Shown: positions 3,834 to 49,627 of the stretch, piece after piece | How positions within the stretch are numbered: position 1 is the stretch's first letter | Layout: the number at the start of each line of letters is the position of its first letter | NCBI GenBank assembly: GCA_041192805.1 | Contig: JBEEMF010000011.1 | Coordinates: 1,009-65,008 of the forward strand | Direction: 5' to 3' | From: Bacteroidota bacterium | GTDB taxonomy: Bacteria; Bacteroidota; Bacteroidia; NS11-12g; UBA955 | Length of the DNA: 64,000 bases | Notes under the pieces: generated by a model | The model's input: only the letters and a program-made list of their open reading frames with translations | Told to the model about the DNA's origin: nothing | Databases searched by the model: none | Position numbers and translations under genes: made by a program

Positions 3834-4367
3834 ATGAGAATTATACAAAATGATTTCGACAAGAAAATAGCAGGAGAATTACTTCCGCTAAGAAATTATG
3901 CATTGTCGTTAACCCACGACATGGACGATACCAAAGATCTAGTACAAGACACAATCCTTAAAGCTTACAGATATCAGAGTAAATTCCAAGAAGGCACAAA
4001 CCTCCGCGGTTGGCTCTACACCATTCTCAAAAATAGCTTCATCAATAACTACCGTCGTGATATGAAGCGCAATACATTCTTGGATAGCACAGACAATTCA
4101 TATTTTATTGATTTGCCGTCTCACAAAATCGATAACGATGCAGAGACGAAGTTTATCCGCCAAGATCTGGAAGCTGCAATTGATGAACTATCCTTTGATT
4201 TAAGAGTAACTTTTAAATTAAACACCGAAGGTTACAAATACCACGAAATTGCCGAAGAAATGCAAATCCCCATTGGCACCGTAAAAACTCGCATATTTGT
4301 TGCCCGCCGTATCCTTCGCGAGCGTCTCAAAGAATATGCTGTTGTTTACGGTTTACAAATGGCGTAA
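3834..4367 (+). CDS. ECF (group 4) RNA polymerase sigma-70 factor, no adjacent anti-sigma
   Basis: 177 aa. Region 2 is DLVQDTILKAYRYQSKFQEGTNLRGWLYTILKNSFINNYRR. The region 4 HTH is YHEIAEEMQIPIGTVKTRIFVARRIL. Confidence 0.85.
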   Translation: MRIIQNDFDKKIAGELLPLRNYALSLTHDMDDTKDLVQDTILKAYRYQSKFQEGTNLRGWLYTILKNSFINNYRRDMKRNTFLDSTDNSYFIDLPSHKIDNDAETKFIRQDLEAAIDELSFDLRVTFKLNTEGYKYHEIAEEMQIPIGTVKTRIFVARRILRERLKEYAVVYGLQMA

Positions 4368-4372
4368 ATTTG
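4342..4372 (+). promoter_or_regulatory. Bacteroidota-type promoter TTG-N20-TAAATTTG for the lycopene-cyclase-domain gene
   Basis: TAAATTTG at 4365..4372; its TAA is the stop codon of the sigma gene. TTG at 4342..4344. The ATG at 4384 lies 11 nt after the motif. Confidence 0.45.
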
Positions 4373-4383
4373 AGGTATTCTTT

Positions 4384-5085
4384 ATGATACCCGATCACTT
4401 AACATACTTATTCTTGAATCTCGTCACGATTGCTGGCCCTTTAGCGCTTTCATTCGATAAAAAAGTGGCATTCTACAAGAATTGGAAACCGTTCACTCTA
4501 TCTATGCTTGCAACGAGTACCTTATACATTGTATGGGACATCTGGTTCACCAAATCAAACGTATGGTTATTCAATCCGCAGTTCCTTTGCGGAAAATGGT
4601 TTGCCAATCTCCCCCTAGAAGAATATATCTTCTTCATTATCATCCCCTATGCATGCCTTTTCATATATGCCTGCCTCAAGGCCTATCTACCTAACTTCTC
4701 GTTCAACAAAGCACTCAAACCGATAGTAATTTCATTAATGGCTATAGGCCTCATCGCAATAGCAATTAACCCGAGTCACTTATATACGACAATAACGTTT
4801 GGATTCCTATTCATCACACTGTCGGCGTTACTCCTCACGCGCCACACAGCCCATTTATCGCACATCATTCTGGCATGGATCATCGCTTTGCTACCAATGG
4901 CATACGTCAACGGAGTATTAACCAGCAAACCCGTCTTGATTTATAACGATGCTCAAAACCTTGGCATTCGCATTGGAACGATACCTATAGAAGATTTTTT
5001 CTATAACATGGTTTACATGCTATGGATGATTACGGTTTACGAAATCCTAAGAAAGAAACATAAAACCACTCCAAGCAAATCCTAG
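4384..5085 (+). CDS. Lycopene cyclase domain-containing membrane protein (fused CrtYc/CrtYd type)
   Basis: The track start 4297 lies inside the sigma gene, so I start at ATG 4384 (MIPDHLTYLF...). 233 aa, about 7 hydrophobic helices. Two copies of the cyclase-domain motif: NLPLEEYIFFIIIPY and TIPIEDFFYNMVYM. Confidence 0.7.
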   Translation: MIPDHLTYLFLNLVTIAGPLALSFDKKVAFYKNWKPFTLSMLATSTLYIVWDIWFTKSNVWLFNPQFLCGKWFANLPLEEYIFFIIIPYACLFIYACLKAYLPNFSFNKALKPIVISLMAIGLIAIAINPSHLYTTITFGFLFITLSALLLTRHTAHLSHIILAWIIALLPMAYVNGVLTSKPVLIYNDAQNLGIRIGTIPIEDFFYNMVYMLWMITVYEILRKKHKTTPSKS

Positions 5086-6153: not shown

Positions 6154-9100
6154 TTAGTGTTTAACTACAACACGCTTAGTAACAGTTTCACCGTTGTTGG
6201 TCAAGTTCACGAAGTAGATACCTTCGCTTACGTTGCTCAAGTCGATTTGAGTGTTACCAAATCCACCTTGCAAGTTATCCAACTTAGATACAACTGCACC
6301 GAATGCATTCGTAACTACTACATTCAAAGGTTGGTTGTTGGTCAAGTTATAACCTACAGTCAACAATCCAGTAGTTGGGTTAGGATGAACAGAAACTGCA
6401 TCTTGCAATTTCGCGCTCTCAGTTCCCATGTAAGTATTGAAGCAATTTGGTGGGTAAGCAACATATACTGGACGAGAAACCGCAGTTGCTTCGTTTCCAC
6501 TAGGATCAACCAAAGAATAGTTGATATAGTAAACACCAGCTTCCATTACGTTCACGTTATGTCCCAATACTTTAACCAAAGGCATCAAATCACCAGAAGA
6601 ATAGTAGTTGTCACGTACAATCAAACCAGACATTGCCCAGAAAGGAGTAGCGATACATACAGAGATTGCAGGTGCAGTGATGGTAGGAGAAATCCTATCA
6701 ACAACTTTGATGAAACGCTGCTTAGTTGTAACGTTTCCACTACCATCAGTTGCAGTGAATGTTTCAACATAAGTACCCAAAGTATAAGCATCTACTTTAC
6801 CAATCTTAGTAACTGAAAGTTGAGACTTAGAGTAAAAATTATCCGTTACAGTTACTGAACGTGAATAGTAAGAGTTGTTTACATCATGCAAAACAGTATC
6901 ACTAGTATTCAATTCAATTTCTGGAGCGATATAATCGTCAACACGGTAGTTCAATACGAAACCATATTCAGTTGCTTTGTTACCAGAAGGATCAACTGCT
7001 TTGTAAGTCACAGGGTATGTCGCACGGATGTTAGTGTTAACAGGACCGTTGAAACCTGGATTCTTAGAAACAAAGATTGAACCGTTACAAGGATCCATTG
7101 AATAAACATCATCAACGAATACACCACCAATTTGAACATTGATAATTGTACCATCTACGATTGCATTAGATAATTTCAAGATGCTAGGAACTTTAGTGTC
7201 TTTTACAACAACTACACGCTTGATAGAGATAGCATTCTTTTGTGCATCAGATACTGAGTAAACCAAAGTGTAAACACCTACAGTTCCAGCATCAACTTTA
7301 CCAGCAATTTTGATTGCAGAAGTCAAGTTACCATCGTTAGCATCAATCGCTACAGCACCTGGCTCAGTGTAAGTATCACACTGCTCCAACACCATAGTGT
7401 CTTTGCCATTCAATGTCAACTTAGGAGCAGTTTTGTCCAAAGCAACAATTACAGTACGGAATCTAGAAACAGCATTGTTTCCAGATGCATCGCGTAAATC
7501 AAATTGGAAACTGTAAATACCAGGAGCTGAACAATCCAAGTCAGTTATAACAACTACACTAGAAGTCATATCACCTTGAGTTGCATCATTTGCCTTAAAA
7601 GTAGTTCCCGCGATTTCAGCATAACATGCAGTTTTAGTTGCAGTTTTTTCAACACGTACAGTGTCTCCACCTAACAATGTAATAACTGGAGCCTGACCAT
7701 CGTTAGCCAATGTCAACACATAGTCCTCAAATTCACCTACAGTGTTAATTCCACAGTATGTATTCGCGAAAGAACTGTAAGATACACCTACACGCATACG
7801 GGTGTTACCTTCAAATGAATTAGAGATATCAGGTACAGTAAATTTACCACTCGCAGATGCGCCAGCAATTGTTCCGCTGCTATAAACTTCTTCACCAGCA
7901 TCAGCAAAGTCACCATCGATATTCCAATCGACCCAAGCTTTGTAATTTACAGAGTTAGAAATTGTGTTACGTCCAACAGTCAAGTCATATGTACCGCCGT
8001 AAGTCAATTTAGCCGGAGCCACTTTATCAGCAAAATTGGTGTAGTAATCGATACCTGAAGTAGATGCATTGTTGATCAATTGAGTGCTACCAGATTTCAA
8101 GGTTACGTTATTGATTCCAACGTCAGCAGACATCAAATCAACCAAAGGAATGCAATAGTCCAAACAAACAACATATTTGTTTTTGATCAATTTTTTCTCT
8201 GTTGCAGTTTTTCCAGCTACAGAATTGTAACCACTCAAAGTGAAAGTGTAAGCACCACCCTTTTGGAATTTCAATTGTGGGTTTTGGCTATTCTTTGTTG
8301 TACCATTTTCATAAGTGAAAGACGTAGGGAAAATGCTCCACTCGAAAGTATTTGCATAGTCAGTCTTCGTAGTGATTGTAATTACATCACCAATGTTAGG
8401 ACGAACGTTGCTTGCAGTATAATCCAAATAGCCAGGAGCAGTTGGAGTATTGATTGTGATTGACTTGCAGAATGTATCAACACCTGTACATGTCAAAGCA
8501 ACCAAACATACTTGATAGCTACCATCTGTGAAGAAAGCACGGGTGTAATCCGTAGCACTAGACTCAGGATTGCCATCAATCTGCCACTCGAAAGTAGGAA
8601 GACCTTTCACGTTACTTGAAGCATTTACAAAATTCACATTCAAACCATTGGCAGCTGGGTTGTAGTCAGTTGTCCATTTGGCTGAAGGTTTAACCGCTGG
8701 AGCCAATACAGATACCCAGTTGATGATAAAACCATTCGCAGTTCCAGAACCATTAGATTCAAACGTAATGTATACCGCACCACTAGTGGTTACAATTTTA
8801 GCAGTATCATATTTAGAAACGTTAGTACCGTCGATAGTAGCAATCAACTTATTTGGAGTTGCTTCTTTCGCATCATAAATACGTAAGATGTCACCATTAT
8901 CATTCAATTTCAATTCACCAAATGACAAAGTGATTTTAGTTGCTCCGCAAGGGATGATTTTGAAATAGTCAATTGAAGTCTTACGACCGTTTCCATAAGG
9001 AGCCGTTGGACCACCGTTGTCATACAAACGGCCTGTCTTAGATTGAGCCTCTTTAGAAGGTCCCATGTAATACTCAGTTGGAGCAATACACTCAATGTAG

Positions 9101-10239
9101 CGATCTTTACATAATTTACTTGACGGACCGATATCGTTTGAAGCTGTCAAACAAACTTTATACCATCCCAATTCACTCAAAGTAAATTTAGGATTTTGAG
9201 CAGTAGAAGTTTGATCATCAACACCGGTAGGTGATGTCAATTCCCAACTGTAACTGTAAGCTCCGTTGTTACTCAAATCATACATGGTAACATCATAATA
9301 AATTTCAGATTCGTTTGTAGAAGCTACAAAATCTGCCTTAGGAACAGCAGTAGGTGCTACAATCTTAACCGTCTTGGAGGCAGAATCTGCAAGTCCACAA
9401 TAGTTAACAAGCATTTTAACATCATACGTACCGTCAGATGCCCATTTGGCCGCTCCTTTATCTGTTTTATCACTGTAACCAGTATATGGAGGCGCAACTG
9501 CCTGGTCAAAGGTCCACTTGTAAGCATAACCATTACTTGGATTAACTGCACTGAATTTCACATTCGTCTTTACATAGTTTGTACCTGTTGGAACGATAAA
9601 GTTTGCAGTAGGAGTTGCTCCCAATTTTAAATTCAATTCCAAATCAAATACGTTACCGTAAGTCTGTGCCTGTCCGCAACCATTCGATGCCGACATTGTG
9701 TAAACCTGAGCACCACCACGAATACGCATGTAACTTAATCCCGTAGAAGTCCAGCAAGGCATTTTGAGGGTGTAGGTTACCTTACCCGATGCGGTGTTTG
9801 AGCTAGGATCTACAACGCACTCCGATGATGAAAAACTACCATCACGGTTTGCGTCAATCCAAATACCGCAACGAGATCCCCATCCCTGAGAAGCCCATGT
9901 TCCACCGGTTACAGTAACGGTGATTGTCTCACTAGCAGTAACGTCAAATCCTTTGCCAGAGTTCAAGATACCCCTGTAAGCATTTGCACCCGATGAAGAA
10001 GTACATCCAAGACCCGTGTAAGAAGCCAAAGTTGTTCCTTTTGCGTTCTTAACCTCTACGTCTAGAATGTCACCAGGTGATTCGGTAGGGTTACCGGTAC
10101 CAAGAATGGACCCACCACATCCCCAGGAAGTAGTTCCCGAACATGGCGTTTGCGCTTTCAAAGTACTCGAAGTGAATAATCCACCCACGAGAACCCCTAA
10201 AAATGCAAGCTTTTTGAGTTGTGTAATTGTTGATTTCAT
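6154..10239 (-). CDS. Secreted multidomain protein with T9SS type-A C-terminal sorting domain (GEVED-like, PKD, CUB-like and Ig-like DUF5011/HYR-type repeats)
   Basis: 1361 aa. Signal peptide MKSTITQLKKLAFLGVLVGGLFTSSTLKAQ. GEVED signature WVDWNIDGDFADAGE...TRMRVGVS...GEFEDYVLTL. CUB-like block GRLYDNGGPTAPYGNG...ITLSFGELKLNDNGDILRIYDA...ITFESNGSGTANGFIINW. Several Ig-like repeats (APVITLLGGDTV..., APKLTLNGKDTMVLEQCDTYTEPGAVAIDANDGNLT...). The CTD is VHPNPTTGLLTVGYNL...GIYFVNLTNNGETVTKRVVVKH. Confidence 0.85.
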   Translation of the reverse strand: MKSTITQLKKLAFLGVLVGGLFTSSTLKAQTPCSGTTSWGCGGSILGTGNPTESPGDILDVEVKNAKGTTLASYTGLGCTSSSGANAYRGILNSGKGFDVTASETITVTVTGGTWASQGWGSRCGIWIDANRDGSFSSSECVVDPSSNTASGKVTYTLKMPCWTSTGLSYMRIRGGAQVYTMSASNGCGQAQTYGNVFDLELNLKLGATPTANFIVPTGTNYVKTNVKFSAVNPSNGYAYKWTFDQAVAPPYTGYSDKTDKGAAKWASDGTYDVKMLVNYCGLADSASKTVKIVAPTAVPKADFVASTNESEIYYDVTMYDLSNNGAYSYSWELTSPTGVDDQTSTAQNPKFTLSELGWYKVCLTASNDIGPSSKLCKDRYIECIAPTEYYMGPSKEAQSKTGRLYDNGGPTAPYGNGRKTSIDYFKIIPCGATKITLSFGELKLNDNGDILRIYDAKEATPNKLIATIDGTNVSKYDTAKIVTTSGAVYITFESNGSGTANGFIINWVSVLAPAVKPSAKWTTDYNPAANGLNVNFVNASSNVKGLPTFEWQIDGNPESSATDYTRAFFTDGSYQVCLVALTCTGVDTFCKSITINTPTAPGYLDYTASNVRPNIGDVITITTKTDYANTFEWSIFPTSFTYENGTTKNSQNPQLKFQKGGAYTFTLSGYNSVAGKTATEKKLIKNKYVVCLDYCIPLVDLMSADVGINNVTLKSGSTQLINNASTSGIDYYTNFADKVAPAKLTYGGTYDLTVGRNTISNSVNYKAWVDWNIDGDFADAGEEVYSSGTIAGASASGKFTVPDISNSFEGNTRMRVGVSYSSFANTYCGINTVGEFEDYVLTLANDGQAPVITLLGGDTVRVEKTATKTACYAEIAGTTFKANDATQGDMTSSVVVITDLDCSAPGIYSFQFDLRDASGNNAVSRFRTVIVALDKTAPKLTLNGKDTMVLEQCDTYTEPGAVAIDANDGNLTSAIKIAGKVDAGTVGVYTLVYSVSDAQKNAISIKRVVVVKDTKVPSILKLSNAIVDGTIINVQIGGVFVDDVYSMDPCNGSIFVSKNPGFNGPVNTNIRATYPVTYKAVDPSGNKATEYGFVLNYRVDDYIAPEIELNTSDTVLHDVNNSYYSRSVTVTDNFYSKSQLSVTKIGKVDAYTLGTYVETFTATDGSGNVTTKQRFIKVVDRISPTITAPAISVCIATPFWAMSGLIVRDNYYSSGDLMPLVKVLGHNVNVMEAGVYYINYSLVDPSGNEATAVSRPVYVAYPPNCFNTYMGTESAKLQDAVSVHPNPTTGLLTVGYNLTNNQPLNVVVTNAFGAVVSKLDNLQGGFGNTQIDLSNVSEGIYFVNLTNNGETVTKRVVVKH

Positions 10240-10266: not shown

Positions 10267-10294
10267 ATGACGCGAAAAAGTCAATTGGTTGCAA
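10267..10294 (-). promoter_or_regulatory. ECF-sigma-type promoter TTGCAACCAAT-N11-CGTCAT upstream of the 1361-aa cargo gene
   Basis: The minus strand reads TTGCAACCAATtgactttttcgCGTCAT, ending 27 nt before ATG 10239. It matches 51582..51609 in sequence and spacing. No TAnnTTTG box in this gap. Confidence 0.5.
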
Positions 10295-21337: not shown

Positions 21338-23080
21338 TCACTTTTTACGCTTTGCAAGATACGCTTCAAATTCAACCAAATTCAATGCGTTGAGGGTCTG
21401 CGATGTCTGCAATCCGCCTTTTTGTCCGCTCAAAACCCCAAAATGCATATCTAAATATCCTCTTTTCTCATGGGCATCTGGGTTTACAGAAACCATCACG
21501 CCTTTTTCCATCGCATAATCAACATATCTCCAGTCGATGTCAAGTCGATACGGATGCGCATTCAACTCCAAAGCCACGCCATTCGCAGCACAAGCATCAA
21601 TCACCTTGTGATGATCTATCGGATAACCTTCTCGCATCAAAAGCAATCTCCCGGTGGGATGACCTAATATTGTTGTGTAAGGATTTTCGATGGCTCGCAG
21701 CAAACGGTCCATCGCCTTGTCTTGGGTCATGTTCAAGTTGCTATGTATCGATGCCACAACCATATCGAACCGACCTAAAATCTCTGGCTCGTAATCCAAA
21801 TCGCCATTGCCAAGAATATCGCTTTCTATGCCCTTAAAAATCTTGAAAGGCCAGAGCTGCTGATTCAATGTATCAATCTCTTCAAACTGCTGTAACACCC
21901 GTTCCACCTGCAATCCACGAGCATATCCCGCTGTTTTGGAGTGGTCGCAAATACCCAAATATTCCATCCCAATCTCCATGGCATACAGCGCCATTTCCTC
22001 CACAGAATTGAGTCCATCCGAATAAGTAGTGTGATTGTGAAGCACCCCTTTGATGTCTGAATACTTCAACAACGATGCTTCTTCTACCGGTCTTTCTAAT
22101 TCACGATGTCCTTCGCGGCGGCTAGGCACCACAAAATTGACGCCCTTTGCGGCATAGGTATCAAGGTCGCTGCCTTTCCAATCCGAGGAGGAATATCCAA
22201 GCAGTTCAAGGTGCCTGGCTGCCGCGCCCCCCTCAAACAAAATACGATCGAAATCAGAATGCATCACCACTTCCATTTCGATAACAAACCCTTGTTCATG
22301 CCTCAGGACACCGGCTTCTTCATCCATCGTCCATCCTTCAAAATGGTTCATTCCAGTTTGATTGCTAACGGTACTTGGATCTAAATCGCGACTACATTTA
22401 ACGTTATCGTCGCCGCCTGCGGCGGCAACCTCACACCATTCCGCCGAAGAAATCCCACTCATCTCCATCGCCGTAGTAAGCAGCACCAAATTCTCTATCA
22501 CATCGCTTTTGCGATAATAATCGCTCGTAAATTCATGTCGCTCATCCCCAAAAACCAATCGCATCCCCGCCAAAAACGACTCCGCATAGGGCATCACTCG
22601 GGCCAAATGGAACTTTCCTCTCGCGCCGTATGAAAACTCAATGGCAGCCATAATCGTTTGCTGCGTCTTGTAACCAAATCCACTGACTTCCACCAAGCGA
22701 TTCTGCCTGCAAGCATCAAACAAATCCTCCACATTTTCGATACCCAGTTCCTGCCAAATCATCCTCACTTTTTTTGGTCCAAGACCCTTAACCCCCAACA
22801 TCGCAATCAGCCCGGTGGGCGTAACCGCCAACAAATCCTCCAACGCTGGAAATCTCCTAGAAACACTATACTCCACAATCGCTCTGGCCACCGACTTACC
22901 AACCCCCGGAATCATCAACAGTTGCGATTCTTGCAAATCAGAAAGTGGATCTTTGATTTTTCGCAAATTGAAAGCGCCAGAAGCAAAGGCCTTGTACTTA
23001 AAAGGATTCTCTTCATGCAATTCAGCCAAACTCGCATATAACTGCAAGGCTTTTACGATTTCATGATTATCCACCGACAT
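21338..23080 (-). CDS. PolX-family protein: HhH N-terminus plus PHP phosphoesterase domain, polymerase catalytic motif apparently degenerate
   Basis: 580 aa. HhH motifs MIPGVGKSVARAIV and LGVKGLGPKKVRMIW. PHP motifs VLHNHTTYSDG, ICDHS, ASIHS, LGHPTGR, ELNAHP and SVNPDAH. See finding. Confidence 0.75.
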   Translation of the reverse strand: MSVDNHEIVKALQLYASLAELHEENPFKYKAFASGAFNLRKIKDPLSDLQESQLLMIPGVGKSVARAIVEYSVSRRFPALEDLLAVTPTGLIAMLGVKGLGPKKVRMIWQELGIENVEDLFDACRQNRLVEVSGFGYKTQQTIMAAIEFSYGARGKFHLARVMPYAESFLAGMRLVFGDERHEFTSDYYRKSDVIENLVLLTTAMEMSGISSAEWCEVAAAGGDDNVKCSRDLDPSTVSNQTGMNHFEGWTMDEEAGVLRHEQGFVIEMEVVMHSDFDRILFEGGAAARHLELLGYSSSDWKGSDLDTYAAKGVNFVVPSRREGHRELERPVEEASLLKYSDIKGVLHNHTTYSDGLNSVEEMALYAMEIGMEYLGICDHSKTAGYARGLQVERVLQQFEEIDTLNQQLWPFKIFKGIESDILGNGDLDYEPEILGRFDMVVASIHSNLNMTQDKAMDRLLRAIENPYTTILGHPTGRLLLMREGYPIDHHKVIDACAANGVALELNAHPYRLDIDWRYVDYAMEKGVMVSVNPDAHEKRGYLDMHFGVLSGQKGGLQTSQTLNALNLVEFEAYLAKRKK

Positions 23081-26560: not shown

Positions 26561-28687
26561 CTAGCGCATCAACATGATGGTACCAGAAATGGTTTTGCGA
26601 CGAACGCGATCACCGGTTTTTAATTCATACCGATAAATGAATGTATAAATTCCTTCTTGACATATATCATTCATATAATAGCCATCCCATTCATAAACGT
26701 TCTTCTCGTGGCTATCAAAGACTTTATCACCCCAACGGTTGTATACTAAAAACAATATTGGAACAGCGCCACGACCGAAGATCTTGAAGCTCTCATTACG
26801 ATTATCTCCGTTTGGAGTAAATGCAGTAGGGATAAACAAATCACAATCCCCCATCATCAAATTCACAGTCACATCATCTGTTGCAGATCCGCAAGCATTT
26901 GTTACAGTGCAAGAATATGTACCTGCAGCACTTACATAAATAACAGTATCACTTGAACCTGTACTCCATTTTATCGTAGTATTTGGCAAGAACGGAGCTA
27001 CCAATTTCACCATTGAACCACTGCACAAAACAGTATCCATCGGCAATGAAATTGATGGTGAAACATTGACTTTGATATTGATTGAGTCTGATGCCTTACA
27101 TCCCGCATTATCTACTACGGCACCGTAAGTACCTGGCAATGAAACGGTCTTAATATTTGCTGTAGATCCGTCATTCCACAGAACTGTACCCGGAATCGAA
27201 ACAGTAATATCAGTACTTGCCCCATCACAAAGGGTAGTGTCCTTACCCAAATTCAAAATCGGCTTTGGAGTAATCGTGATATCTGCAGTTGAAGAATCTG
27301 GACAATGCTGATCTTGAACCACATATTTAATCGTCACCTTCCCCGTTTTGGTTGGATAGAAGCTGTTCCCCGTAAATGTCTCTCCCTTGAAAATACCTCC
27401 CGTTGTTTTTGGACTCAGCATAATGGCCGGACCACCTTGACATGCCGTTGCTGGCAAACCGGTAAATGCTGGATCTACATTGGGTTTCACTTTAACGATA
27501 ATTGTATCTTTTCCAGTACAGCCATCTACACTCGTGGCTTCGTGAATAATTGGATAATCTCCAACCGACGGAAACGATTTAGACACTGTTTTAGTAACTG
27601 CCGTTGAACCGCCGCCCAAATCCCACTTAAAACTCACCAATCCTGGAAACTTGTTATCAAAATCAAAAATATTACCAGCCAAACACTGAATAGAATCATT
27701 CACCCAAACACCGGAGGAAGGACTCGCCACTACCTTTACCCACATATTGGCGGTGTCGGTACAACCCGTCTGTTTGTTATCGTAAAGTGTTTCACTCTTA
27801 TAATGAATGCGATATCTACCTGGAGCCAAATAAGACTTGGTCGGATTTGGAATGGTAGCACTGTCTTGGTCATTAAAAAACCAGGTTCGGATGTATGCGC
27901 ACTTTGGAATTTTCGCCAACTGCGTATTGTCATCAAAACGAAAAACGTGTCCGTCAAAGCACTGAACTGTATCATTCGCCTTCTCAAACGGCTTACTCAC
28001 AGGCCGAGGAACAATAAAAATTGCCTTTGGCGTTGTGGCTATATCTAAACAATTTAATGCAGGAGAAGCAACCAAATTGACAGTGAAATTACCTCCTTTA
28101 ACATACGTGTGTGTTGCATTCAACCCAGTATCCTGAGAACCATCGCCATAAATCCAAGTATATTTAACCCAACCGAAATTGGCCGATTTGGTAGAAGTAT
28201 TGGAAAATGTAATTTTATTTGATTTCTCACAACTGTCATTTGTTCCTTTGTGAGTAAATGCAACAGTTAACTTGTGTGTAGTAAAACTAACGGTGGCCGT
28301 TTTTGATGTTAGATAATCTGGACCCGTACCGTCGTGCTCAAAAACAGTGACGTGATAAGTAGTATTTACTTTAAGATTTGTAACAATTACGCTGTTCGTG
28401 ATATTATTGAAAACAGCAAAATTTCCTGTACCCAACTGACCACCGCTTCCGAAATTTGCATTTGCCGAATATGAACTACCATCAGCTGGTGTAGCATCAA
28501 CTGCTGCCGCCTCTTTTACTAATACCAAACGCCATGCTCCATTTCCGCTCGTCCAAGTAAGCTGCGCCGAGTTACACGTAATGGTTCCGGGCTTTAAGTT
28601 AGTAGCCGCTTGCGTAGGTTCAGCCGCCTTCAATTGAATTGAAAGGGAGAATATAACGCAGAGAATCAAAAGTACTTTTTTTACCAT
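26561..28687 (-). CDS. Secreted FN3/PKD-repeat protein with T9SS type-B (gliding-motility-associated) C-terminal domain
   Basis: 708 aa with a signal peptide. FN3-like N-terminus (LTWTSGNGAWRLVLVKE...TTYHVTVFEH). PKD-like repeats. The CTD is FIPTAFTPNGDNRNESFKIFG...VYNRWGDKVFDS...EWDGYY...GIYTFIYRY...GTIMLMR. Confidence 0.85.
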   Translation of the reverse strand: MVKKVLLILCVIFSLSIQLKAAEPTQAATNLKPGTITCNSAQLTWTSGNGAWRLVLVKEAAAVDATPADGSSYSANANFGSGGQLGTGNFAVFNNITNSVIVTNLKVNTTYHVTVFEHDGTGPDYLTSKTATVSFTTHKLTVAFTHKGTNDSCEKSNKITFSNTSTKSANFGWVKYTWIYGDGSQDTGLNATHTYVKGGNFTVNLVASPALNCLDIATTPKAIFIVPRPVSKPFEKANDTVQCFDGHVFRFDDNTQLAKIPKCAYIRTWFFNDQDSATIPNPTKSYLAPGRYRIHYKSETLYDNKQTGCTDTANMWVKVVASPSSGVWVNDSIQCLAGNIFDFDNKFPGLVSFKWDLGGGSTAVTKTVSKSFPSVGDYPIIHEATSVDGCTGKDTIIVKVKPNVDPAFTGLPATACQGGPAIMLSPKTTGGIFKGETFTGNSFYPTKTGKVTIKYVVQDQHCPDSSTADITITPKPILNLGKDTTLCDGASTDITVSIPGTVLWNDGSTANIKTVSLPGTYGAVVDNAGCKASDSINIKVNVSPSISLPMDTVLCSGSMVKLVAPFLPNTTIKWSTGSSDTVIYVSAAGTYSCTVTNACGSATDDVTVNLMMGDCDLFIPTAFTPNGDNRNESFKIFGRGAVPILFLVYNRWGDKVFDSHEKNVYEWDGYYMNDICQEGIYTFIYRYELKTGDRVRRKTISGTIMLMR

Positions 28688-31691: not shown

Positions 31692-33047
31692 TTACTTCAC
31701 CTCACGGATCCAAACTTGTGGAACCGCAGATTCATAATAGAAAATACCCTTATTAGCATCCTTCTCTGATGGGAAGTCCTTCAAGAATACATAGTAACTC
31801 TTGTTACTTGGATCGTAGATCTTGTAGGCAAATATACCCTTCTTATACAAATCTTTGATTTGCTTGTTCGCCTTTGATTCAGCACTGTGTAAACCCGCAA
31901 CCAAATAGAACCCTGGCGATGGCTTAACCTTTTCGATAGGTGGCAATTTGATACCGGAAGTATCCTTACCTGCTCCAAAAGCAACCAAATCTTCTAAACT
32001 TGTAACCGTCACTTCCTTTTTCATTGAAGCACTATTCACATTAGCACCACCTTCTGATTCACCATTTTCATTTTCACCCGAGCTATTCAAATTTGCATCT
32101 CCTTCATCACCATTTGTGCTATTCAAATCAGACCCATTTCGAGACCCGCCGCCCAATGCTGAAAACCCGATATACGTATGAAATTCATGAGAATTACCCA
32201 AAGCAATTCGCTGAGCACCCGTAGGTGTGTTATACGAATACGACACTTTAATATCTGACTGAGGGGCAAATCCAATATTACCACCAATCTGACCAATATC
32301 GTTGCCACCAATACCCATCCAAAACTTATCTTGGTAGTTAAACGATGCGTTATATTGGACTCTATAATAATCAAAATTATATGCAGACACATAAATTGAA
32401 GGCTTCAACAAGATGTCGTTGCCCAAATCAATGTTATACCCAAACAACAAACTCGCTTGCGCTTGCATCTGGTAAGTAGATGTGTAATTGTAATAGATGT
32501 AATCAAATCGTGGCTTACTTAAACGAGAAATCGCAACCCCACCAAACCACTTTTCTCCATTTATAAATGCAGATGCGCGCAAATCAGCACGGGTTACCGG
32601 CGGTGTTAACATCAACGATTTGATAATAGGATCGTTGCCGCTAATGTAAACAGCCTTCGACATATCAAAGTTCTGTGACAACACACCTACACTCATTCCC
32701 AAATTCAAATTGGTAGTGCTCGCAATGGGCAAAGAATAGGCGTACGTTGCATAGGCATTGTGCATTTCAGAGAAACCCACCCTTTCGCGCATATAATACA
32801 AACCATACCCAGTGTTTTTTGACGGCACGGGCATCGCGATGTTCAATACGGTTGTTTGTGGGCTACCTGGAACAGCCGAGAACATTTTGTTATACAACAA
32901 CGTCACATGACCTTGCTCATGAGTATTCATGGCAGCAGGATTAATCATAGAATAATCCATGTAATACTGATCCAATTTCGCTCCCATTTGAGCGCTAACA
33001 CTTCCAATGCACAGAGCAATGGCAGAAATGATGCTAATTTTTTTCAT
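31692..33047 (-). CDS. PorP/SprF-family T9SS outer-membrane protein with low-complexity linker and C-terminal SPOR-like domain
   Basis: 451 aa; the start lies 5 nt after the stop of the type-B adhesin gene. Signal peptide, then the PorP/SprF N-terminal pattern QYYMDYSMINPAAMN...YGLYYMRERVGF. A G/N/S/E-rich linker. The C-terminus GFYLVAGLHSAESKANKQIKDLYKKGIFAYKIYDPSNKSYYVFLKDFPSEKDAN fits the SPOR pattern. Confidence 0.75.
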   Translation of the reverse strand: MKKISIISAIALCIGSVSAQMGAKLDQYYMDYSMINPAAMNTHEQGHVTLLYNKMFSAVPGSPQTTVLNIAMPVPSKNTGYGLYYMRERVGFSEMHNAYATYAYSLPIASTTNLNLGMSVGVLSQNFDMSKAVYISGNDPIIKSLMLTPPVTRADLRASAFINGEKWFGGVAISRLSKPRFDYIYYNYTSTYQMQAQASLLFGYNIDLGNDILLKPSIYVSAYNFDYYRVQYNASFNYQDKFWMGIGGNDIGQIGGNIGFAPQSDIKVSYSYNTPTGAQRIALGNSHEFHTYIGFSALGGGSRNGSDLNSTNGDEGDANLNSSGENENGESEGGANVNSASMKKEVTVTSLEDLVAFGAGKDTSGIKLPPIEKVKPSPGFYLVAGLHSAESKANKQIKDLYKKGIFAYKIYDPSNKSYYVFLKDFPSEKDANKGIFYYESAVPQVWIREVK

Positions 33048-33052
33048 CTGAA

Positions 33053-36000
33053 TTAACGAATTACTTGGATATAACCTCTAAACTCTTCGCCGTTAAAGCG
33101 ATTTTTCATGTAGTAAAAATAAATACCTGGTGGCAGGTCAGTTCCTGAATTATCAACCGCCTTCCAATCATTTAAATAATTGCCGGTATAATAAACCAAT
33201 TTACCCTGACGGTCACTGATGCGTAAGTCGAACAAATATAAATCCGCCAACTCGCTCAAATCCCAGAAATCATTCTGCAAATCACCATTTGGAGTAATCA
33301 AATTCGGAATTCTAACCAACGGAGGATCAACCACAGTAACAAGAACAGAATCATTGTCGTCACAGCCGTTTGAGTCAGTACCAGAAACATAATAGGTACG
33401 CGTAGTTAACGGACGGGCAATAACAGAATCACCATTACCCCTATTCAAAGTAGAACTATCAGTCCACCAATAATTGGTTGCACCAACCGCATGTAAATTC
33501 GCCTTTTTACCTCTGTAAATAGTGGTGTCACGATAAACAATAATATTCGCCATCGGGAAAGCTTTTACTTGTACTGAATCAACGGCAGTACATATACCAG
33601 ACGTCGCTGTTACTTTATACCAACCCTTGCCGTATAATTTCTGCGTACGATTTGTGTCCTTCGCCCCAACCCAACGAATCGTATCTCCCCCACTCGCAGT
33701 AATATCAATTGAGTCGCCCTTACACAACGGCATACTTCCAATAAATGAAAAAGAAACAACTGGCTTTAAGGTAAACGCAAAACTCTGTGTCATTGTATCA
33801 ATACAGCCCTGATCGTCTTCCACTATGTACGAAACTGCATGGGGACCCGCCGTAGAGAAGTACTGCTTCACTGGCGCTTTTCCAATCACAACAGACCCAT
33901 TGATATCCCAAGAATATTTCACCAAAGGACGAGCAGATTTTGAAGCTGTGTCTTTAAAAATAATGGTATCAGGCACGCAGATGCCCTGTTTATAGAAATT
34001 TGCTCTAGGGCTTGGTTTTACAACGAATTGCTGCAAAACACTATCTACACAATTATGGATTGAAACGCCATACAATTTAACTGTATAAACACCAGTGTCT
34101 TTGTAAGAGTGATTGTTCGATGTTGCAGGTGATTCAGTATTCCCATCGCCCCAACTCCATCCGGAATTCAATAACGTGTCATTGACATCAATTCCCACGT
34201 TGAAATTAAATTTGAAATTATTGTATTTGAAACATTGTATTGAATCATTAGGCAACATGGCCTTATCGAGTGAAAATGTCGGATTAGGAATGTAATGCGA
34301 CATTACGATACCCACTGCAGAATCCCTACAACCATGATTCGTTTGAGCGAGCATCACCACATTGTGAATACCCGGAGTAGCAAATAACACTTTTGGATTC
34401 TTTGTAAAAAAGTTAATCGTATTGTCGAATTTCCAACTATAAGTTGTCAATGGCTCTAGACTAAGCACAGTTTGGGTTTTGCGCAGAAATGCAGTAGAAT
34501 CCCCAAAACACTTTTCCGTTACGGTATATCCAGCCGAAGGTTTCGGTTGAACAAAAATCGAAAGTGTATCTGAGCTTATGCAACCAGCATTAGAAATTAC
34601 CGTCAATTTTGACTTGTAAATCCCCGGCAATAAATAGGTATGCTTGGCGCCGTACAATGTGGTATCGTTGCCACCATCACCAAATGTCCAAAAGTATGTA
34701 CCCGCATAATCAGGATTCATAATTTGGGTGTTATCTGTAAAAACGGTTTCTTCACCAATACAAGTAGCACTTTGCGTATAATCAACCAATGGCAGAGGAA
34801 AAGTCCGAACGGGCTTAATGATAGAATCCCTACAAGCACCTTTTTGACCTGCATAGTTTGAATATGAAATCAACTTTACAAAATACAGCCCTGGAGGATT
34901 GTATTTACGTGTAACTGTCTTTGATGTTGATGTTGGCGACCCGTCACCAAAATCCCATTTTCTTGTCGAAATCAAATCAGGCGCTGATACCGTGCTCTGA
35001 TCATCAAATACAACAGACTGACCAAAACAAACATCTTTAGGATCAAAAGCAGGTGCAGGTTTAGCATGAACCACATAATCGAAAGTATCAATCGCAAAAC
35101 AAGCGTTAACAGTTGTCACTCTTAGAATTACCTTGTATCCACCTGGGTTTGTATATGTATGATTAACAATTTTCGACGTTTTGATTGTTGGTGGCGGTCC
35201 ATCACCCAAATTCCAATTCCAACCCGAAATTGTCTCGCCGTTAGCATTAGAAAAGTCAGTAAAAACAGTCTGTTCACCGATACAAACATTGTTTACCGTT
35301 TTTAATATAAAAGGCGTTGTAAATACAGTAACCATCTGAACCCAAGAATCCAAATTCCCGTCGGCATTTAGGATAGTTAAACTAACTCTGTAAGTGCCCC
35401 CGTTTGCATATTTATGTACAGCATTTTTCGTCGTTACCGAGTTCCCTGACGACCCCGCATCACCAAAATTCCATGTATTTGTTAAAATCGCTGAAATACT
35501 CTTGCTGAGATTTGTAAACTTCAATGTGTCTCCAGAACACCTACCAGTCAATTTATAAGACGCAAATGGCTCTTTGCTTCCTAGTATATTTAATCCTGTT
35601 TTTCGTTCTGTGGCTGTAAGTACGATTGTATTTCCCAACGCAAACGTGCCCAAAGTCGACATACTTGTTGTGGCCGTGGTAATCTGACCCTTTCGAATCA
35701 CAGAACCTGTTCCACCATGGTCTTTCCATGTTGCAGTGGCTGTGTAACCCAAAATTCTTAATGTAGAGTTTTCATAGACTCCATCATCCGTTGATATAGA
35801 ATCATACTTGAGTGTAACTACAAAATTGGAACTATTTGAAGCATTAGTAGGCACTGTAGCACCCACGAAATAATTTACCGCCGAATAATTTCGAATACCC
35901 GTAGGTAAAGATCCGTTCCCAGTTGCTTTTCCTTTAAACATTTGAAACACGTAGTATGTCAAATTGCCATTTCCCTTGGAAAAACTCAAACCCACCGGAC

Positions 36001-36544
36001 GATAATCACTACCCGCACCCACTGGGAATGTCAAACTTGTAGAACCATTTGTTAGGCCAATATGCAGCGCCCCATCAATAAAACTCGTTGTACCACCCCC
36101 CGTAAACGTACAGCCACTCAAAGCCCTAAATGCAAGCAGATTAGAACCCACTTGTACAAGACCATCCGTTAGAGTAATTTTGGTCTTTACATTAAATGTC
36201 TTTGGCGCAGAATTCCCATCAACGGTTAAAGTGATACCAGATTTATTCATTGTCAATTGGTCCACCTGAACACTATCTACACTGAACGTCATCGTATAAC
36301 CCACCTGAACTGTTTCGGCATAATAACCGGTGGAAATCATAATAATGTCCGAACCCGACGTTGCAATATTAGCAGCAGCCGTGATTGTTAATTTTGCAGT
36401 TGCAGCACTCAGTCCGTTATTCGCGTCATTACCCGTTTTAGAAACGTAATATGTTGCCCCTGACAGAAACTGAATTGATGCAATCGTAAAAACCGATAAA
36501 ACCAATACCGATTTGAGAAAAGATTGTATAGTAGAAAACTTCAT
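33053..36544 (-). CDS. Large PKD-repeat adhesin-like protein with T9SS type-B C-terminal domain
   Basis: 1163 aa with a signal peptide. At least 7 PKD-like repeats (W.FGDG...H.Y..PG.Y.V.L). The CTD is IPNLITPNGDLQNDFWDL...PPGIYFYYMKN...RGYIQVIR. Confidence 0.85.
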   Translation of the reverse strand: MKFSTIQSFLKSVLVLSVFTIASIQFLSGATYYVSKTGNDANNGLSAATAKLTITAAANIATSGSDIIMISTGYYAETVQVGYTMTFSVDSVQVDQLTMNKSGITLTVDGNSAPKTFNVKTKITLTDGLVQVGSNLLAFRALSGCTFTGGGTTSFIDGALHIGLTNGSTSLTFPVGAGSDYRPVGLSFSKGNGNLTYYVFQMFKGKATGNGSLPTGIRNYSAVNYFVGATVPTNASNSSNFVVTLKYDSISTDDGVYENSTLRILGYTATATWKDHGGTGSVIRKGQITTATTSMSTLGTFALGNTIVLTATERKTGLNILGSKEPFASYKLTGRCSGDTLKFTNLSKSISAILTNTWNFGDAGSSGNSVTTKNAVHKYANGGTYRVSLTILNADGNLDSWVQMVTVFTTPFILKTVNNVCIGEQTVFTDFSNANGETISGWNWNLGDGPPPTIKTSKIVNHTYTNPGGYKVILRVTTVNACFAIDTFDYVVHAKPAPAFDPKDVCFGQSVVFDDQSTVSAPDLISTRKWDFGDGSPTSTSKTVTRKYNPPGLYFVKLISYSNYAGQKGACRDSIIKPVRTFPLPLVDYTQSATCIGEETVFTDNTQIMNPDYAGTYFWTFGDGGNDTTLYGAKHTYLLPGIYKSKLTVISNAGCISSDTLSIFVQPKPSAGYTVTEKCFGDSTAFLRKTQTVLSLEPLTTYSWKFDNTINFFTKNPKVLFATPGIHNVVMLAQTNHGCRDSAVGIVMSHYIPNPTFSLDKAMLPNDSIQCFKYNNFKFNFNVGIDVNDTLLNSGWSWGDGNTESPATSNNHSYKDTGVYTVKLYGVSIHNCVDSVLQQFVVKPSPRANFYKQGICVPDTIIFKDTASKSARPLVKYSWDINGSVVIGKAPVKQYFSTAGPHAVSYIVEDDQGCIDTMTQSFAFTLKPVVSFSFIGSMPLCKGDSIDITASGGDTIRWVGAKDTNRTQKLYGKGWYKVTATSGICTAVDSVQVKAFPMANIIVYRDTTIYRGKKANLHAVGATNYWWTDSSTLNRGNGDSVIARPLTTRTYYVSGTDSNGCDDNDSVLVTVVDPPLVRIPNLITPNGDLQNDFWDLSELADLYLFDLRISDRQGKLVYYTGNYLNDWKAVDNSGTDLPPGIYFYYMKNRFNGEEFRGYIQVIR

Positions 36545-46295: not shown

Positions 46296-47201
46296 ATGCC
46301 AATCATCCCTACTCCAACATTAATCGCCGAGGGCAACGAAAGAGCCATCGCTAGGGCAATTAGTTGGGTAGAGAACCAACATCCGCAATCGATGGAATTG
46401 CTGGAACAACTCGAAGGTAACTGCCCGATTGTTGGCGTAACTGGCCCTCCCGGTGCCGGAAAAAGCAGCTTGGTGAACGCATTGGTGTTGCACTGGAGTT
46501 CAAAAGGATTAAAAACAGCCATTGTTGCCGTTGACCCATCCTCCCCATTCAACTTAGGCTCCCTATTGGGCGATCGTTTGCGCATGCCAGGCCTTTTCCT
46601 TGACCCCAAAGTCTTTATTCGAAGCTTATCCGCCCGAGGTTCGTTGGGTGGCCTTAGCGCGAGTATTATTGAAGTGTGCGATATCCTAAAACACGCCAAA
46701 TTCGATAGAATCATCATCGAAACCGTAGGTGTGGGTCAGAGCGAAATCGAAATTGCAGGCATCGCCGATACTACTTTGGTCGTAACCGTCCCAGAAAGCG
46801 GCGACGAGGTGCAAACGATGAAAAGTGGCGTGATGGAAATCGCAGACATTTTCGTGGTCAACAAGAGCGATAGAGACGGTGCAGAAGCATTTGCCAATCA
46901 TTTAAAAAAACTAGCCCATTACAAGTCGACCAGCGATGGTTGGGAAATTCCCGTAATCAACACAGTGGCAACCGATGGAAAAGGGATTCAAACATTGAGC
47001 GATGCGATTTCGGCTCATCTAGAAACGCAAAACAACATTCAAAATCTCAGCAATCTATTTGCAGAACGTGCCTTTCGATTGATTCAACGTCAAAAAATGA
47101 GAAGTATCCCGTTAAATCAATTGAAGGAAGAAATTGCCATTGAATTAGATAAAGGCCTGTTCAACCTCTATCGTTTCGCCAAAAAATACTATACTAATTA
47201 G
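46296..47201 (+). CDS. meaB: Methylmalonyl-CoA-mutase-associated GTPase MeaB/ArgK family
   Basis: 301 aa. P-loop VGVTGPPGAGKSSLVNAL, IIETVGVGQSE and VVNKSDR motifs. Confidence 0.85.
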   Translation: MPIIPTPTLIAEGNERAIARAISWVENQHPQSMELLEQLEGNCPIVGVTGPPGAGKSSLVNALVLHWSSKGLKTAIVAVDPSSPFNLGSLLGDRLRMPGLFLDPKVFIRSLSARGSLGGLSASIIEVCDILKHAKFDRIIIETVGVGQSEIEIAGIADTTLVVTVPESGDEVQTMKSGVMEIADIFVVNKSDRDGAEAFANHLKKLAHYKSTSDGWEIPVINTVATDGKGIQTLSDAISAHLETQNNIQNLSNLFAERAFRLIQRQKMRSIPLNQLKEEIAIELDKGLFNLYRFAKKYYTN

Positions 47202-49627
47202 TGTTGGATTTGAACCAATGCCGTGGAATTGCCAATGCGCAAGGTGTAAATTCCCGATGCGAGATCTTTTACTGAAATCGAAACAGTATCCGCTGTTACC
47301 TGTCCGTTTAACATCGTAACGCCAGTCATTGAAACCAATTGCCAAGTATTGTTTCTGTAAGCGCCCAATCCTGTAACATTGAATTGATTTGATGCTGGAT
47401 TTGGATACAAATTCAAGCCGCCTTTAATCACCTTCACTGATGCCGTTTTATCAACCAACGTCACAGTACAATTCTTAGAAGTAGCCTGCCATTTGCTATC
47501 GTAATCAACCATCGCGATGTTATTAATTACCGTTTTCAAAGGCAATGTTTGATAGGTCTCAACACGATACATCACATAACCAACACTTCCAATTGGATTG
47601 GCTTCAAATGAACTCAAATTTGCTTCAGGAAAATCTACGACTAACACTCTACCCTGTTCGATGCAATAGTTTGCTTTGTTTGGATAAAACGAGGTCAGAA
47701 CCAAGCGCGACAATGGCAAGTTAGCGTCCAATGTGTCCACCATAACAACGCGCTTCACTAGACTTCCACTTACGTTTCTGAAGTCCACGCGATACTCCCA
47801 CTGCTTTTGACGGTAATCTACGGTTCCCTCTTCGATATTCGATTTCTGTACGGTCACCATCCCACCTCTCCGACTCAAACTCAATTGCAAGGTATCATTG
47901 TTGTCTTTGGTATCGGCATCTTTCTGAGTCAGTCCGGTTCCGGATTTAACCATAAAGTTGAAGTTGTCTGCATTTTGCGCAGTCAATGGAATTGCCGTTG
48001 TAATCACGATGACTTGTTCTCCAAAAGCGGCCAAATTACTCAGTGAATAAATGGCTTCATTGTTGGCGTAATTGTCTGGCATCGGATTGGATTGGAATGC
48101 TGAAATATCCGACCCATGTTGAATATGTACAGTCCCGTTAGTAAGTGCTGTGCCTCCATGATTTGCGATTTTCACAATCACTTTCACTTCGTCGCCCGCT
48201 TTTGCCCCTGCCGGGATAATTGCATTCATTCCCAACTGAACATCTAAAATCGATGGCAATTGGTAGTAACCCAAACTCACATAACTATAAACGCCTTTTC
48301 TAATTCTTGCTGTGTTATTGCCTAAGCAAACACCATACAAATGCTTTCCGGGATTGGTTGATAGATCATAATCACCCGCAGGCATCGCCATTGTAAAGTG
48401 TCCGCTAGAATCGGTAACAGCAAAATAGACTGTACCTGAAACTTTATTTACCATCCTCACCAGTTGGTTCGATAGTCCAATTTCGGCATCGTCTTTTACG
48501 CAATTCGAATTGACATCATAAAATAGATCACCATACAAATTCCCAGATTCAGATTCGATTTTTGAGAAATATTGCAGATCGGTATTGAGTTCGGTAAAAT
48601 CGCCCCATATGAAGGCTCCATCGCCGCGCTGACCTAGGTTAAAAGACCCGTTGATGCGGTTGCCTGTAAATCTCAATGAAGCGCCATCATAGACTAGTAG
48701 TGACGTGCCGTTGCTATTTTTTACAAAAGAACCCCCAATCAAAAGATCGGTACCGGCGCCCATTAATGTTGTGGGTGAGCTAATGCTAAAAGAATCAAAT
48801 CCGATTGGACTCGCCCAAGTACCTTGGAAAATAGAAATTTGCTTATCGCCCGTTGCGTTTTTCCCTAATGCTGCAATTTTATTATTGAAAACTCCCAATT
48901 CTAACACTTCGCCTTTGAAAGGACTTCCTACACCACCCCAACCGCCATTGGCAGCCGTAAAGTAAGCGATATTTCCTGTGCTAGAACCTGCAAAAGTCTG
49001 AAAATCCCCACCAATATAAAGTCGATTCCCTACTACAGCCAAGGTGCGAATCACACCATCTGTACCTTGTGCGGTTCCACTATTTCCCAGGTAAGACCAA
49101 GATTTCCCGTTGTATGCAGCAATGTTTTGAACTGGATTTCCGTTCACCGTGTTATCAAACAACCCCGCAACAATTAGCTTATCGTCGAAAACGGTCATTG
49201 CGATAATTCCATTGTTTCTGGTATCCACAACACCAATTTCAGCGACCCATTTCGCACCATCCCATTTATACAAATGACTTACTGGAACATCGGCGTCGCG
49301 TTCTGCATTGGCAATATAAGCCGCAGCATACATCGTATCGTGATACAAAGCGATGGAATGGAAATTATATGTTCCTTTTACGGTTTTTACGGGTGATGGA
49401 GTTGTTAGCCCTGAATAGTAACTCCAGCTAACACCATTCCAGCGAGCCATTGTGAAATCATTGATTTCGGCTGTAGAGGTTTCTTCGAAAAGCGCCAGGT
49501 ACTCGTTCCCCGCAGCGTAAGATGCAACAACCCGGGCTGGCAAACCAGATCCCAATGGCTGCAACACCTGCGCCTGTGCGGAAACACACAGGATACATAG
49601 CACTGTCAACAAAGACTGAACTCTCAT
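47198..49627 (-). CDS. Secreted beta-propeller-like / SdrD-B-like / DUF11-like protein with T9SS type-A CTD
   Basis: I start at ATG 49627 (MRVQSLLTVLCILCVSAQAQ signal peptide); the track start 49735 would overlap the upstream gene by 68 nt. Repeats of about 50 aa with GG(D/S)F...NIA.(Y/F).G..W..(L/V)G. GDLFYDVNSNCVKDDAEIGLSNQLV...TDSSGHFTMAMPAGDYDL. The CTD is LNLYPNPASNQFNV...GIYTLRIGNSTALVQIQH. Confidence 0.8.
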   Translation of the reverse strand: MRVQSLLTVLCILCVSAQAQVLQPLGSGLPARVVASYAAGNEYLALFEETSTAEINDFTMARWNGVSWSYYSGLTTPSPVKTVKGTYNFHSIALYHDTMYAAAYIANAERDADVPVSHLYKWDGAKWVAEIGVVDTRNNGIIAMTVFDDKLIVAGLFDNTVNGNPVQNIAAYNGKSWSYLGNSGTAQGTDGVIRTLAVVGNRLYIGGDFQTFAGSSTGNIAYFTAANGGWGGVGSPFKGEVLELGVFNNKIAALGKNATGDKQISIFQGTWASPIGFDSFSISSPTTLMGAGTDLLIGGSFVKNSNGTSLLVYDGASLRFTGNRINGSFNLGQRGDGAFIWGDFTELNTDLQYFSKIESESGNLYGDLFYDVNSNCVKDDAEIGLSNQLVRMVNKVSGTVYFAVTDSSGHFTMAMPAGDYDLSTNPGKHLYGVCLGNNTARIRKGVYSYVSLGYYQLPSILDVQLGMNAIIPAGAKAGDEVKVIVKIANHGGTALTNGTVHIQHGSDISAFQSNPMPDNYANNEAIYSLSNLAAFGEQVIVITTAIPLTAQNADNFNFMVKSGTGLTQKDADTKDNNDTLQLSLSRRGGMVTVQKSNIEEGTVDYRQKQWEYRVDFRNVSGSLVKRVVMVDTLDANLPLSRLVLTSFYPNKANYCIEQGRVLVVDFPEANLSSFEANPIGSVGYVMYRVETYQTLPLKTVINNIAMVDYDSKWQATSKNCTVTLVDKTASVKVIKGGLNLYPNPASNQFNVTGLGAYRNNTWQLVSMTGVTMLNGQVTADTVSISVKDLASGIYTLRIGNSTALVQIQH

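Follow-up and report, generated by a model that had tools for sequence, protein, structure and literature searches.

Two identical 28-nt sites lie 41 kb apart on the minus strand of a 64,000-nt stretch of Bacteroidota DNA (the window, meaning the whole stretch analysed), and their conservation among related genomes argues that they are real, evolutionarily conserved promoters. [quoted passage not shown] Sequence comparison supports a specific motif that is conserved at both loci, an ECF21-like character of the sigma factor and a Dma-like architecture of its partner protein. Because the sigma is ECF21-like, the elements of the sites resemble those of the ECF21 test promoter Pecf21_up4014 and the partner is Dma-like, we propose that the locus encodes a Das/Dma-like module. 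The features are collected in Table 1; the remaining window is an ordinary Bacteroidota chromosome, including PorP/SprF, two CHU_C-type cargo genes and a second ECF sigma factor.

Table 1. Coordinates of the predicted genes and candidate promoter elements in the 64-kb window
Feature	Position	Strand	Remarks
Second ECF sigma factor	3834..4367	+	overlaps lycopene cyclase gene (pair 3834..5085); weak PhyR_sigma2-like match
T9SS cargo protein, 1361 aa, adhesin-like	6154..10239	-	Pfam and NCBIfam; signal peptide, type A C-terminal sorting domain
Predicted cargo promoter	10267..10294	-	-35 TGCAACC 10293..10287; -10 CGTC 10272..10269, 29 nt before ATG 10239
Motif copy 1, TTGCAACCAAT-tgactttttcg-CGTCAT	10294..10267	-	27 nt from ATG 10239
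DUF7619 T9SS cargo protein, third operon gene	47198..49627	-	Pfam; likely start ATG 49627, not 49735
Dma-like putative anti-sigma factor, 460 aa	49668..51050	-	overlaps sigma gene by 38 nt
ECF sigma factor, ECF21-like (Das-like)	51013..51567	-	Sigma70_r2 and Sigma70_r4_2; conserved TTG start
Predicted sigma-operon promoter	51582..51609	-	-35 TGCAACC 51608..51602; -10 CGTC 51587..51584, 16 nt before TTG 51567
Motif copy 2, TTGCAACCAAT-cgcgatttgtg-CGTCAT	51609..51582	-	14 nt from TTG 51567

The shared motif and its specificity in the window

The initial annotation had reported the two identical copies, and its positions, 17 specified bases and 11-nt spacer agree with the sequence, as do the distances that it gave to the two start codons. 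All 17 specified bases and the length of the spacer (11 nt) are the same in both copies, and the spacers themselves agree at 5 of 11 positions (nGnnnTTTnnG). No match to TTGCAACCAAT-N11-CGTCAT besides the two exact copies is found in the 64-kb window at up to 3 mismatches, and the shuffled window gives a mean of 0.42 matches at this threshold, which places the two exact copies far above chance. The claim that there is no third copy holds for the full motif, with none within 3 mismatches, but not for its first half, as GCAACCAAT recurs at 33473..33481 on the minus strand. This third GCAACCAAT lies within the coding sequence of a CHU_C cargo gene, and no CGTCAT half accompanies it; the chance expectation for the window is about 1.2 copies, with which the third copy is consistent. 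The shorter pattern TGCAAC-N15-CGTC with one mismatch has 4 matches in the window, all 4 of them within coding sequences.

A weight matrix built from 19 non-redundant sites (consensus TGCAACCnTT-N8-TTGCGTCnT) scores the sigma-operon site at 37.6 bits and the cargo site at 36.1 bits. The third-best match in the window scores 15.1 bits, compared to a maximum of 13.7 bits in shuffles, and the matrix finds no further regulon members within the window. The 15.1-bit match reads CCTTGATACC...GGGCGTCAAT (22135..22166, minus strand), lies within a PolX-like coding sequence and is probably due to chance.

A housekeeping-type TAnnTTTG box lies within 150 nt upstream of 12 of the 37 genes of the window, in line with the dozen or so reported initially. 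Within the same 150 nt, the box is absent for the cargo gene 6154..10239 and for all genes of the sigma operon, so that neither promoter has one, as had been claimed.

Conservation of the motif upstream of sigma and cargo orthologues

In all inspected orthologues of the sigma gene, from 98% to 58% identity, TGCAACC-N14-CGTC is found at a fixed upstream distance. Down to 69% identity, the upstream regions align over TTTG[C/T]AACC-N14-CGTC and over an invariant GAAGCTACTTG block that contains the TTG start, while the rest aligns poorly; the orthologues with 62% and 58% identity retain TGCAACC-N14-CGTC at the same distance from TTG. The sigma-promoter motif is conserved in nine related loci (L001-L006, L113, L194 and L196) and in 8 GTDB species genomes. 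Every one of the related loci derives from a metagenome-assembled genome (MAG) with a Bacteroidota or Flavobacteriales label.

The TTG at 51567 is the first possible start of the sigma gene after an in-frame TAA. In all orthologues, the TTG sits in the invariant GAAGCTACTTG block about 16 nt past the -10 element, which would leave a very short leader and may reflect a conserved signal for translation initiation. We also observed a 26-nt block, CAAAAGTGGCCTTAAATGCGGTCGGT (51652..51677, minus strand), in the interval that separates the sigma promoter from a divergent E1 dehydrogenase gene; L001-L004 and L113 share the block with the window, whereas L005 and L006 do not. This block may be an operator or a piece of a divergent promoter. 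A structured RNA was rejected for it, since it has no Rfam match and folds no better than shuffles; the Rfam search of the whole window likewise gave no matches.

On the cargo side, TG.AAC-N15-CGT stands 57-60 nt ahead of the ATG in about 45 of the 64 loci with usable upstream sequence, in a set to which a metagenome scan contributed 80 extra loci. The motif is retained from 98% to about 53% protein identity, and the flanking intergenic DNA is unalignable. Some clades carry near-variants (TTGCCACC, TGACACC, or CATC for CGTC), and the motif is absent upstream of the cargo gene in 9 distant loci (L147, L152, L167, L169, L170, L175, L177, L188 and L189). Promoter turnover is seen among the cargo orthologues, either as CATC for CGTC or as a mutated -35; CATC replaces CGTC in L149, L150, L154 and L178, and L120 and L133 also show turnover. 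L175 and L177 have a housekeeping-type TACATTTG box in place of the motif. The motif is found at both loci on a single contig in scaffold_89 (L113 and L007) and in SXGS01055885.1 (L006 and L129). Covariation between paired promoters is uninformative, as the core is invariant in all three pairs.

Across 853 kb of related loci, the weight matrix at a threshold of at least 18 bits finds 19 sites ahead of sigma genes and 56 ahead of cargo genes, and a single stray match (19.7 bits) lies outside both site classes. We also scanned the exact 17-base pattern in GTDB, with one genome per species (185,579 species). The scan gives 103 matches, and the 11 within the lineage are 8 sigma promoters and 3 cargo promoters, including two MAGs that each have one sigma-promoter match and one cargo-promoter match. 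The other 92 matches are in other lineages with unrelated flanks and are apparently chance intragenic matches; about 70 are expected by chance. No third promoter class for the exact motif is found in the 185,579 species genomes. Because the relatives have only two orthologous promoter classes and the remaining GTDB matches occur at roughly chance number, the motif is not a dispersed repeat, and this possibility, named in the initial annotation as one that would refute its reading, was rejected.

These results suggest that the regulon defined by the exact sequence consists of two promoters per genome. The regulon may be larger, for instance through degenerate sites, and other ECF21-type sigmas may read the motif elsewhere, the examined part of this genome being 64 kb. 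The ECF-controlled surface-protein regulon proposed initially stands as far as the two promoters are concerned, but the expected enrichment upstream of other T9SS cargo genes was not seen, and the word regulon is justified for two promoters only.

Classification of the sigma factor

The sigma factor at 51013..51567 (about 180 aa) contains Sigma70_r2 (56 bits) and Sigma70_r4_2 (59 bits) and no other domains, and it matches TIGR02937 at 86 bits (cut-off 42.9). The nearest solved structures are SigE, SigH, SigW and RpoE. Its best NCBIfam equivalog, sigma_PG0214/GFO_1088, reaches 92 bits, below the cut-off of 130 bits. The sigma scores 112-127 bits, with 34-36% identity, against ECF21_1280 (B. thetaiotaomicron) and ECF21_2825 (Flavobacteria BBFL7), close to the 117-129 bits of these two references against each other, and the controls (an ECF20 reference and the second sigma of the window) give 39-57 bits. 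From this comparison with two references, whose sequences are taken from the supplement of Rhodius et al., 2013 (PMC3817407), and with two controls, the sigma appears to belong to, or to lie next to, the ECF21 group. Other features of the locus concern the lineage and the neighbouring gene: the window has genes typical of Bacteroidota (T9SS PorP/SprF and CHU_C), and the gene adjacent to the ECF21-like sigma is Dma-like. Dma family members adjoin ECF21 sigmas and are found in Bacteroidota only (PMC10927553; bioRxiv 10.1101/2025.09.27.678952; PMC9308784).

The ECF21 test promoter Pecf21_up4014 reads AGGCAACC...CGTC (PMC3817407). It has the -35 GCAACC and the -10 CGTC that are also found here, but the spacing is GCAAC-N17-CGTC compared to GCAAC-N15-CGTC at the sites described in this study, in a comparison with a single reference from another organism.

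Architecture of the 460-aa partner protein

The gene that overlaps the sigma gene is present in every orthologous operon and encodes a 460-aa protein with an N-terminal region of about 50 aa, a transmembrane (TM) helix at about 52-72, a linker at about 77-222 and a C-terminal beta-barrel at 227-459. The N-terminal region of about 50 aa, ahead of the TM helix, is nearly invariant among orthologues, the single TM segment (FIWYWLVAGVLLLVVAGSLF) is invariant to conserved, and the C-terminal portion of about 235 residues is highly conserved. The linker of about 150 residues is of low complexity, varies in length and sequence, cannot be aligned, and is modelled at pLDDT below 50 with no secondary structure.

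Searches of Pfam, NCBIfam and PDB sequences with the 460-aa protein are uninformative, with no Pfam or NCBIfam match, and the protein was identified by structure model and fold search alone. The AlphaFold model, made with 22 sequences, has a mean pLDDT of 54 and good confidence in the barrel strands only; it shows N-terminal helices, with the TM segment within a helix at 33-76, the unstructured linker, and long antiparallel strands at 227-459 with pLDDT 70-90. The top Foldseek matches of the model in the PDB are OmpA, OmpW, OmpX, Ail and NspA, with E-values of 5e-8 to 1e-4, and orthologues of the protein give weak OMP_b-brl_2 matches. The model has about 8-12 barrel strands, compared to 8 in Dma1. 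At the sequence level, the family of the 460-aa protein is apparently restricted to one freshwater Bacteroidota clade.

The 460-aa protein appears to have a Dma-like architecture and is predicted to span both membranes. Dma proteins have a short N-terminal sigma-binding region, a TM helix, a disordered tether and a barrel (PMC10927553; bioRxiv 10.1101/2025.09.27.678952), and the first 40 residues of Dma1 suffice for binding Das1 (PMC10927553; bioRxiv 10.1101/2025.09.27.678952; PMC9308784). By analogy, the N-terminal region of the 460-aa protein is the predicted cytoplasmic sigma-binding part. The initial annotation had mentioned neither this Dma-type anti-sigma partner nor the Das1/Dma1 precedent in Bacteroides.

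The sigma operon and its third gene

At the orthologous sigma loci, a three-gene unit is kept everywhere, consisting of the sigma gene, the gene of a 420-500-aa protein and a DUF7619 cargo gene, and the neighbourhood is usually the same. No response regulator adjoins the sigma operon in the window or in the orthologous loci.

The DUF7619 protein contains beta-propeller-like repeats, CarboxypepD_reg/SdrD_B-like, DUF11 and DUF7619 domains, and a Por_Secre_tail. Its likely start, ATG 49627, is followed directly by a signal peptide, MRVQSLLTVLCILCVSAQAQ, and lies 40 nt past the stop of the anti-sigma gene, as in the orthologues. Since the gap is 40 nt, the third gene is probably co-transcribed with the rest of the sigma operon. 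In the program-made ORF list, this gene begins at 49735 and overlaps the anti-sigma gene. Just upstream of ATG 49627, the sequence TAAATTGC (TAnnTTGY, cf. the SM5 class of F. psychrophilum) is found at 49640..49633, and an internal promoter ahead of the DUF7619 cargo gene is possible.

The distal cargo gene and other cargo genes of the window

Domain matches bear out the initial gene calls, namely the ECF sigma, the 1361-aa GEVED/PKD/CUB cargo protein and an operon that ends in a Por_Secre_tail protein. The 1361-aa protein contains two GEVED domains, a PKD domain, a weak CUB match, four Bact_surface_Ig-like domains and a Por_Secre_tail. For Por_Secre_tail (cut-off 27), the sorting domain of the 1361-aa protein reaches 48 bits and that of the DUF7619 protein 36 bits; for TIGR04183 (cut-off 23), the values are 38.7 and 33.6 bits, respectively. 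Signal-peptide-like N-termini can be read directly in both cargo proteins, and both are predicted to be secreted. No homology between the 1361-aa and DUF7619 cargo proteins was found.

Full-length orthologues of the 1361-aa protein range from 97% to about 41% identity, and the synteny around the cargo gene is conserved (LptD, Amidase_3, cargo, MlaD, lycopene cyclase, second sigma).

The regions 26561..28687 and 31692..36544 of the minus strand also contain two type B (CHU_C) cargo genes, one of them immediately upstream of PorP/SprF. Both have TAnnTTTG about 25 nt ahead of the start codon, and these housekeeping boxes suggest that different cargo classes here use different promoter types. We considered the motif as a general cargo signal and rejected it, because the T9SS cargo genes at 26561..28687 and 33053..36544 have TAnnTTTG instead and the one at 60996..63866 has no such site.

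Alternative readings of the shared sites

The proposal in the initial annotation that the sigma drives both its own operon and the distal cargo gene gains its support from sequence comparison, in which the motif is fixed upstream of the orthologues. It is unlikely that the sites are genuine ECF promoters with another reader, either a paralogous ECF21-type sigma encoded elsewhere or the second sigma at 3834..4367, in which case the 51013..51567 sigma would be a mere target. ECF sigmas of the same group often overlap in specificity, as discussed for the SM6 motif of F. psychrophilum (PMC9723704), three Dma systems are known from B. thetaiotaomicron, and every orthologous locus has a second ECF sigma near the cargo gene, with 64 kb of the genome examined; however, all orthologues of the 51013..51567 sigma gene have an AAC-containing -35 and a CGT-containing -10 directly upstream, as is usual for autoregulation. 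The second sigma was rejected as the reader of the motif, because it has no motif upstream and is not ECF21-like, scoring only 39-45 bits against the ECF21 references. It lies about 1.8 kb from the cargo gene, and its position next to MlaD and the cargo gene is kept in all orthologous loci, including L007, L008 and L009. A conserved TTTGTATAAGATAT block is found just upstream of its start, and this second sigma may be light- or carotenoid-related.

We consider it very unlikely that the shared sequence is instead the operator of a DNA-binding transcription factor that co-regulates both loci, with the AAC and CGT elements being coincidental. Conservation alone does not separate a sigma site from an operator, and the TT and the G in the spacer just ahead of CGTC are also partly conserved. 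Yet the motif consists of two conserved blocks around a variable spacer of fixed length and has no dyad or direct-repeat symmetry; the blocks correspond to ECF -35 and -10 elements, those of the ECF21 test promoter among them, and the distances to the start codons suit a promoter, with no alternative housekeeping box at either gene. Two readings that leave the sites without a regulatory role, namely chance identity and a remnant of a dispersed repeat or mobile element, are effectively refuted. The window does have a third GCAACCAAT, and unrelated genomes contain some 90 copies of the exact 17-base motif, close to the chance expectation; but 64 kb should hardly ever contain two exact 17-base matches by chance, the sites and not their flanks are conserved at orthologous positions across deep divergence, the similarity stops at the motif edges, and any related genome has only the two site classes. 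The genome-wide search, with its 8 sigma promoters and 3 cargo promoters within the lineage among 185,579 genomes, likewise speaks for promoter sites rather than a dispersed repeat.

Proposed mechanism

Reading of the two sites by the 51013..51567 sigma remains our preferred interpretation; like this reading, the place where transcription starts, the way in which the sigma is released and the signal behind it are inferred. The promoter used by this sigma would have the form of a -35 TGCAACC, 14 more bases and a -10 CGTC. The sigma, of the envelope-stress type, would be kept at the inner membrane through the short N-terminus that the 460-aa anti-sigma factor exposes to the cytoplasm; this factor would cross the periplasm through its disordered tether and end in a Dma-type outer-membrane beta-barrel. 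A signal at the outer membrane or the cell surface would lead to loss of the anti-sigma factor and free the sigma. The freed sigma would transcribe its own operon (sigma, anti-sigma and DUF7619 T9SS cargo), giving positive feedback, and the gene of the 1361-aa GEVED/PKD/Ig-like T9SS cargo protein 41 kb away. Transcription would start about 6-8 nt past CGTC, so that the leader would measure about 10 nt at the sigma gene and about 22 nt at the cargo gene. The predicted outcome is the production of two T9SS-secreted adhesin-like surface proteins.

As a further and quite unlikely step, the Dma-like barrel might sense the T9SS cargo of its own operon (its presence, absence or anchoring) or general T9SS traffic, forming a surface-protein feedback circuit. 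If so, the production of the two adhesins would be adjusted by what has reached the surface, and a single polypeptide would link T9SS and transcription across the envelope, with a logic like that of PorA-PorXY-SigP but built differently.

Autoregulation of an ECF sigma together with a few distal targets is a textbook arrangement. This arrangement, the Das/Dma design and links between ECF sigmas and T9SS are already known, so that the locus is a new example of a known regulatory design and reveals no new mechanism. What is new is a lineage-wide module in uncultured freshwater Bacteroidota, with an explicit promoter consensus and with T9SS cargo proteins rather than NigD-type lipoproteins as its putative targets. 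The first description of Dma/Das systems dates from 2024, and little has been reported on their signals or promoter logic; the locus offers the deeply conserved consensus given above and a minimal two-promoter regulon, and it would tie a Dma-class envelope sensor to T9SS cargo in abundant uncultured freshwater Bacteroidota. It also provides a ready sigma/promoter pair for reporters and a testable hypothesis on when two large adhesin-like proteins are displayed.

Comparison with known systems

A link between ECF sigmas and T9SS is known in P. gingivalis (SigP) and has been proposed in F. psychrophilum (SM6; PMC9723704). The PorXY-SigP system (PMC4800418, PMC7712824) resembles the present one in that an ECF sigma is tied to T9SS and a sorting-domain cargo protein, PorA, is part of the circuit. 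SigP differs in being an ECF228 sigma that lacks an anti-sigma factor and instead depends on the response regulator PorX for its stability, and its targets are secretion machinery genes, compared to cargo genes here. The orphan-sigma hallmark of PorXY-SigP fails at this locus, where a conserved anti-sigma-like gene overlaps the sigma gene.

The SM6 promoters of F. psychrophilum, a member of Flavobacteriales, were mapped by 5'-end RNA-seq (PMC9723704). They share a CGT-containing -10 with the sites described here and are likewise found upstream of an ECF/anti-sigma pair and of T9SS-related genes; the likeness lies in the -10, and SM6 precedes the machinery genes gldN and porU and about a dozen others.

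The closest likeness in design is to Das1/Dma1 of B. thetaiotaomicron (BT_4720/BT_4721), which has the relatives EcfO/Reo in B. fragilis and M0N98_03761/03760 in Phocaeicola vulgatus (PMC10927553, PMC9308784). The Dma papers searched make no mention of a promoter motif. The Das1/Dma1 regulon comprises an operon-adjacent gene and two distal genes (PMC10927553), and its targets are NigD-like lipoproteins and BT_1287, whereas the predicted targets here are two large multidomain T9SS proteins. In addition, the anti-sigma factor here is without a Pfam match of its own and its barrel may exceed 8 strands, and the host is an uncultured freshwater Bacteroidota lineage; the two systems are likened by architecture. 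In both systems, the operon places behind the gene of an ECF21-type sigma that of a predicted or known anti-sigma factor with an N-terminal region, a TM helix, a tether and a barrel, a further gene lies in or next to the operon, and the regulon appears to be very small and to include distal genes.
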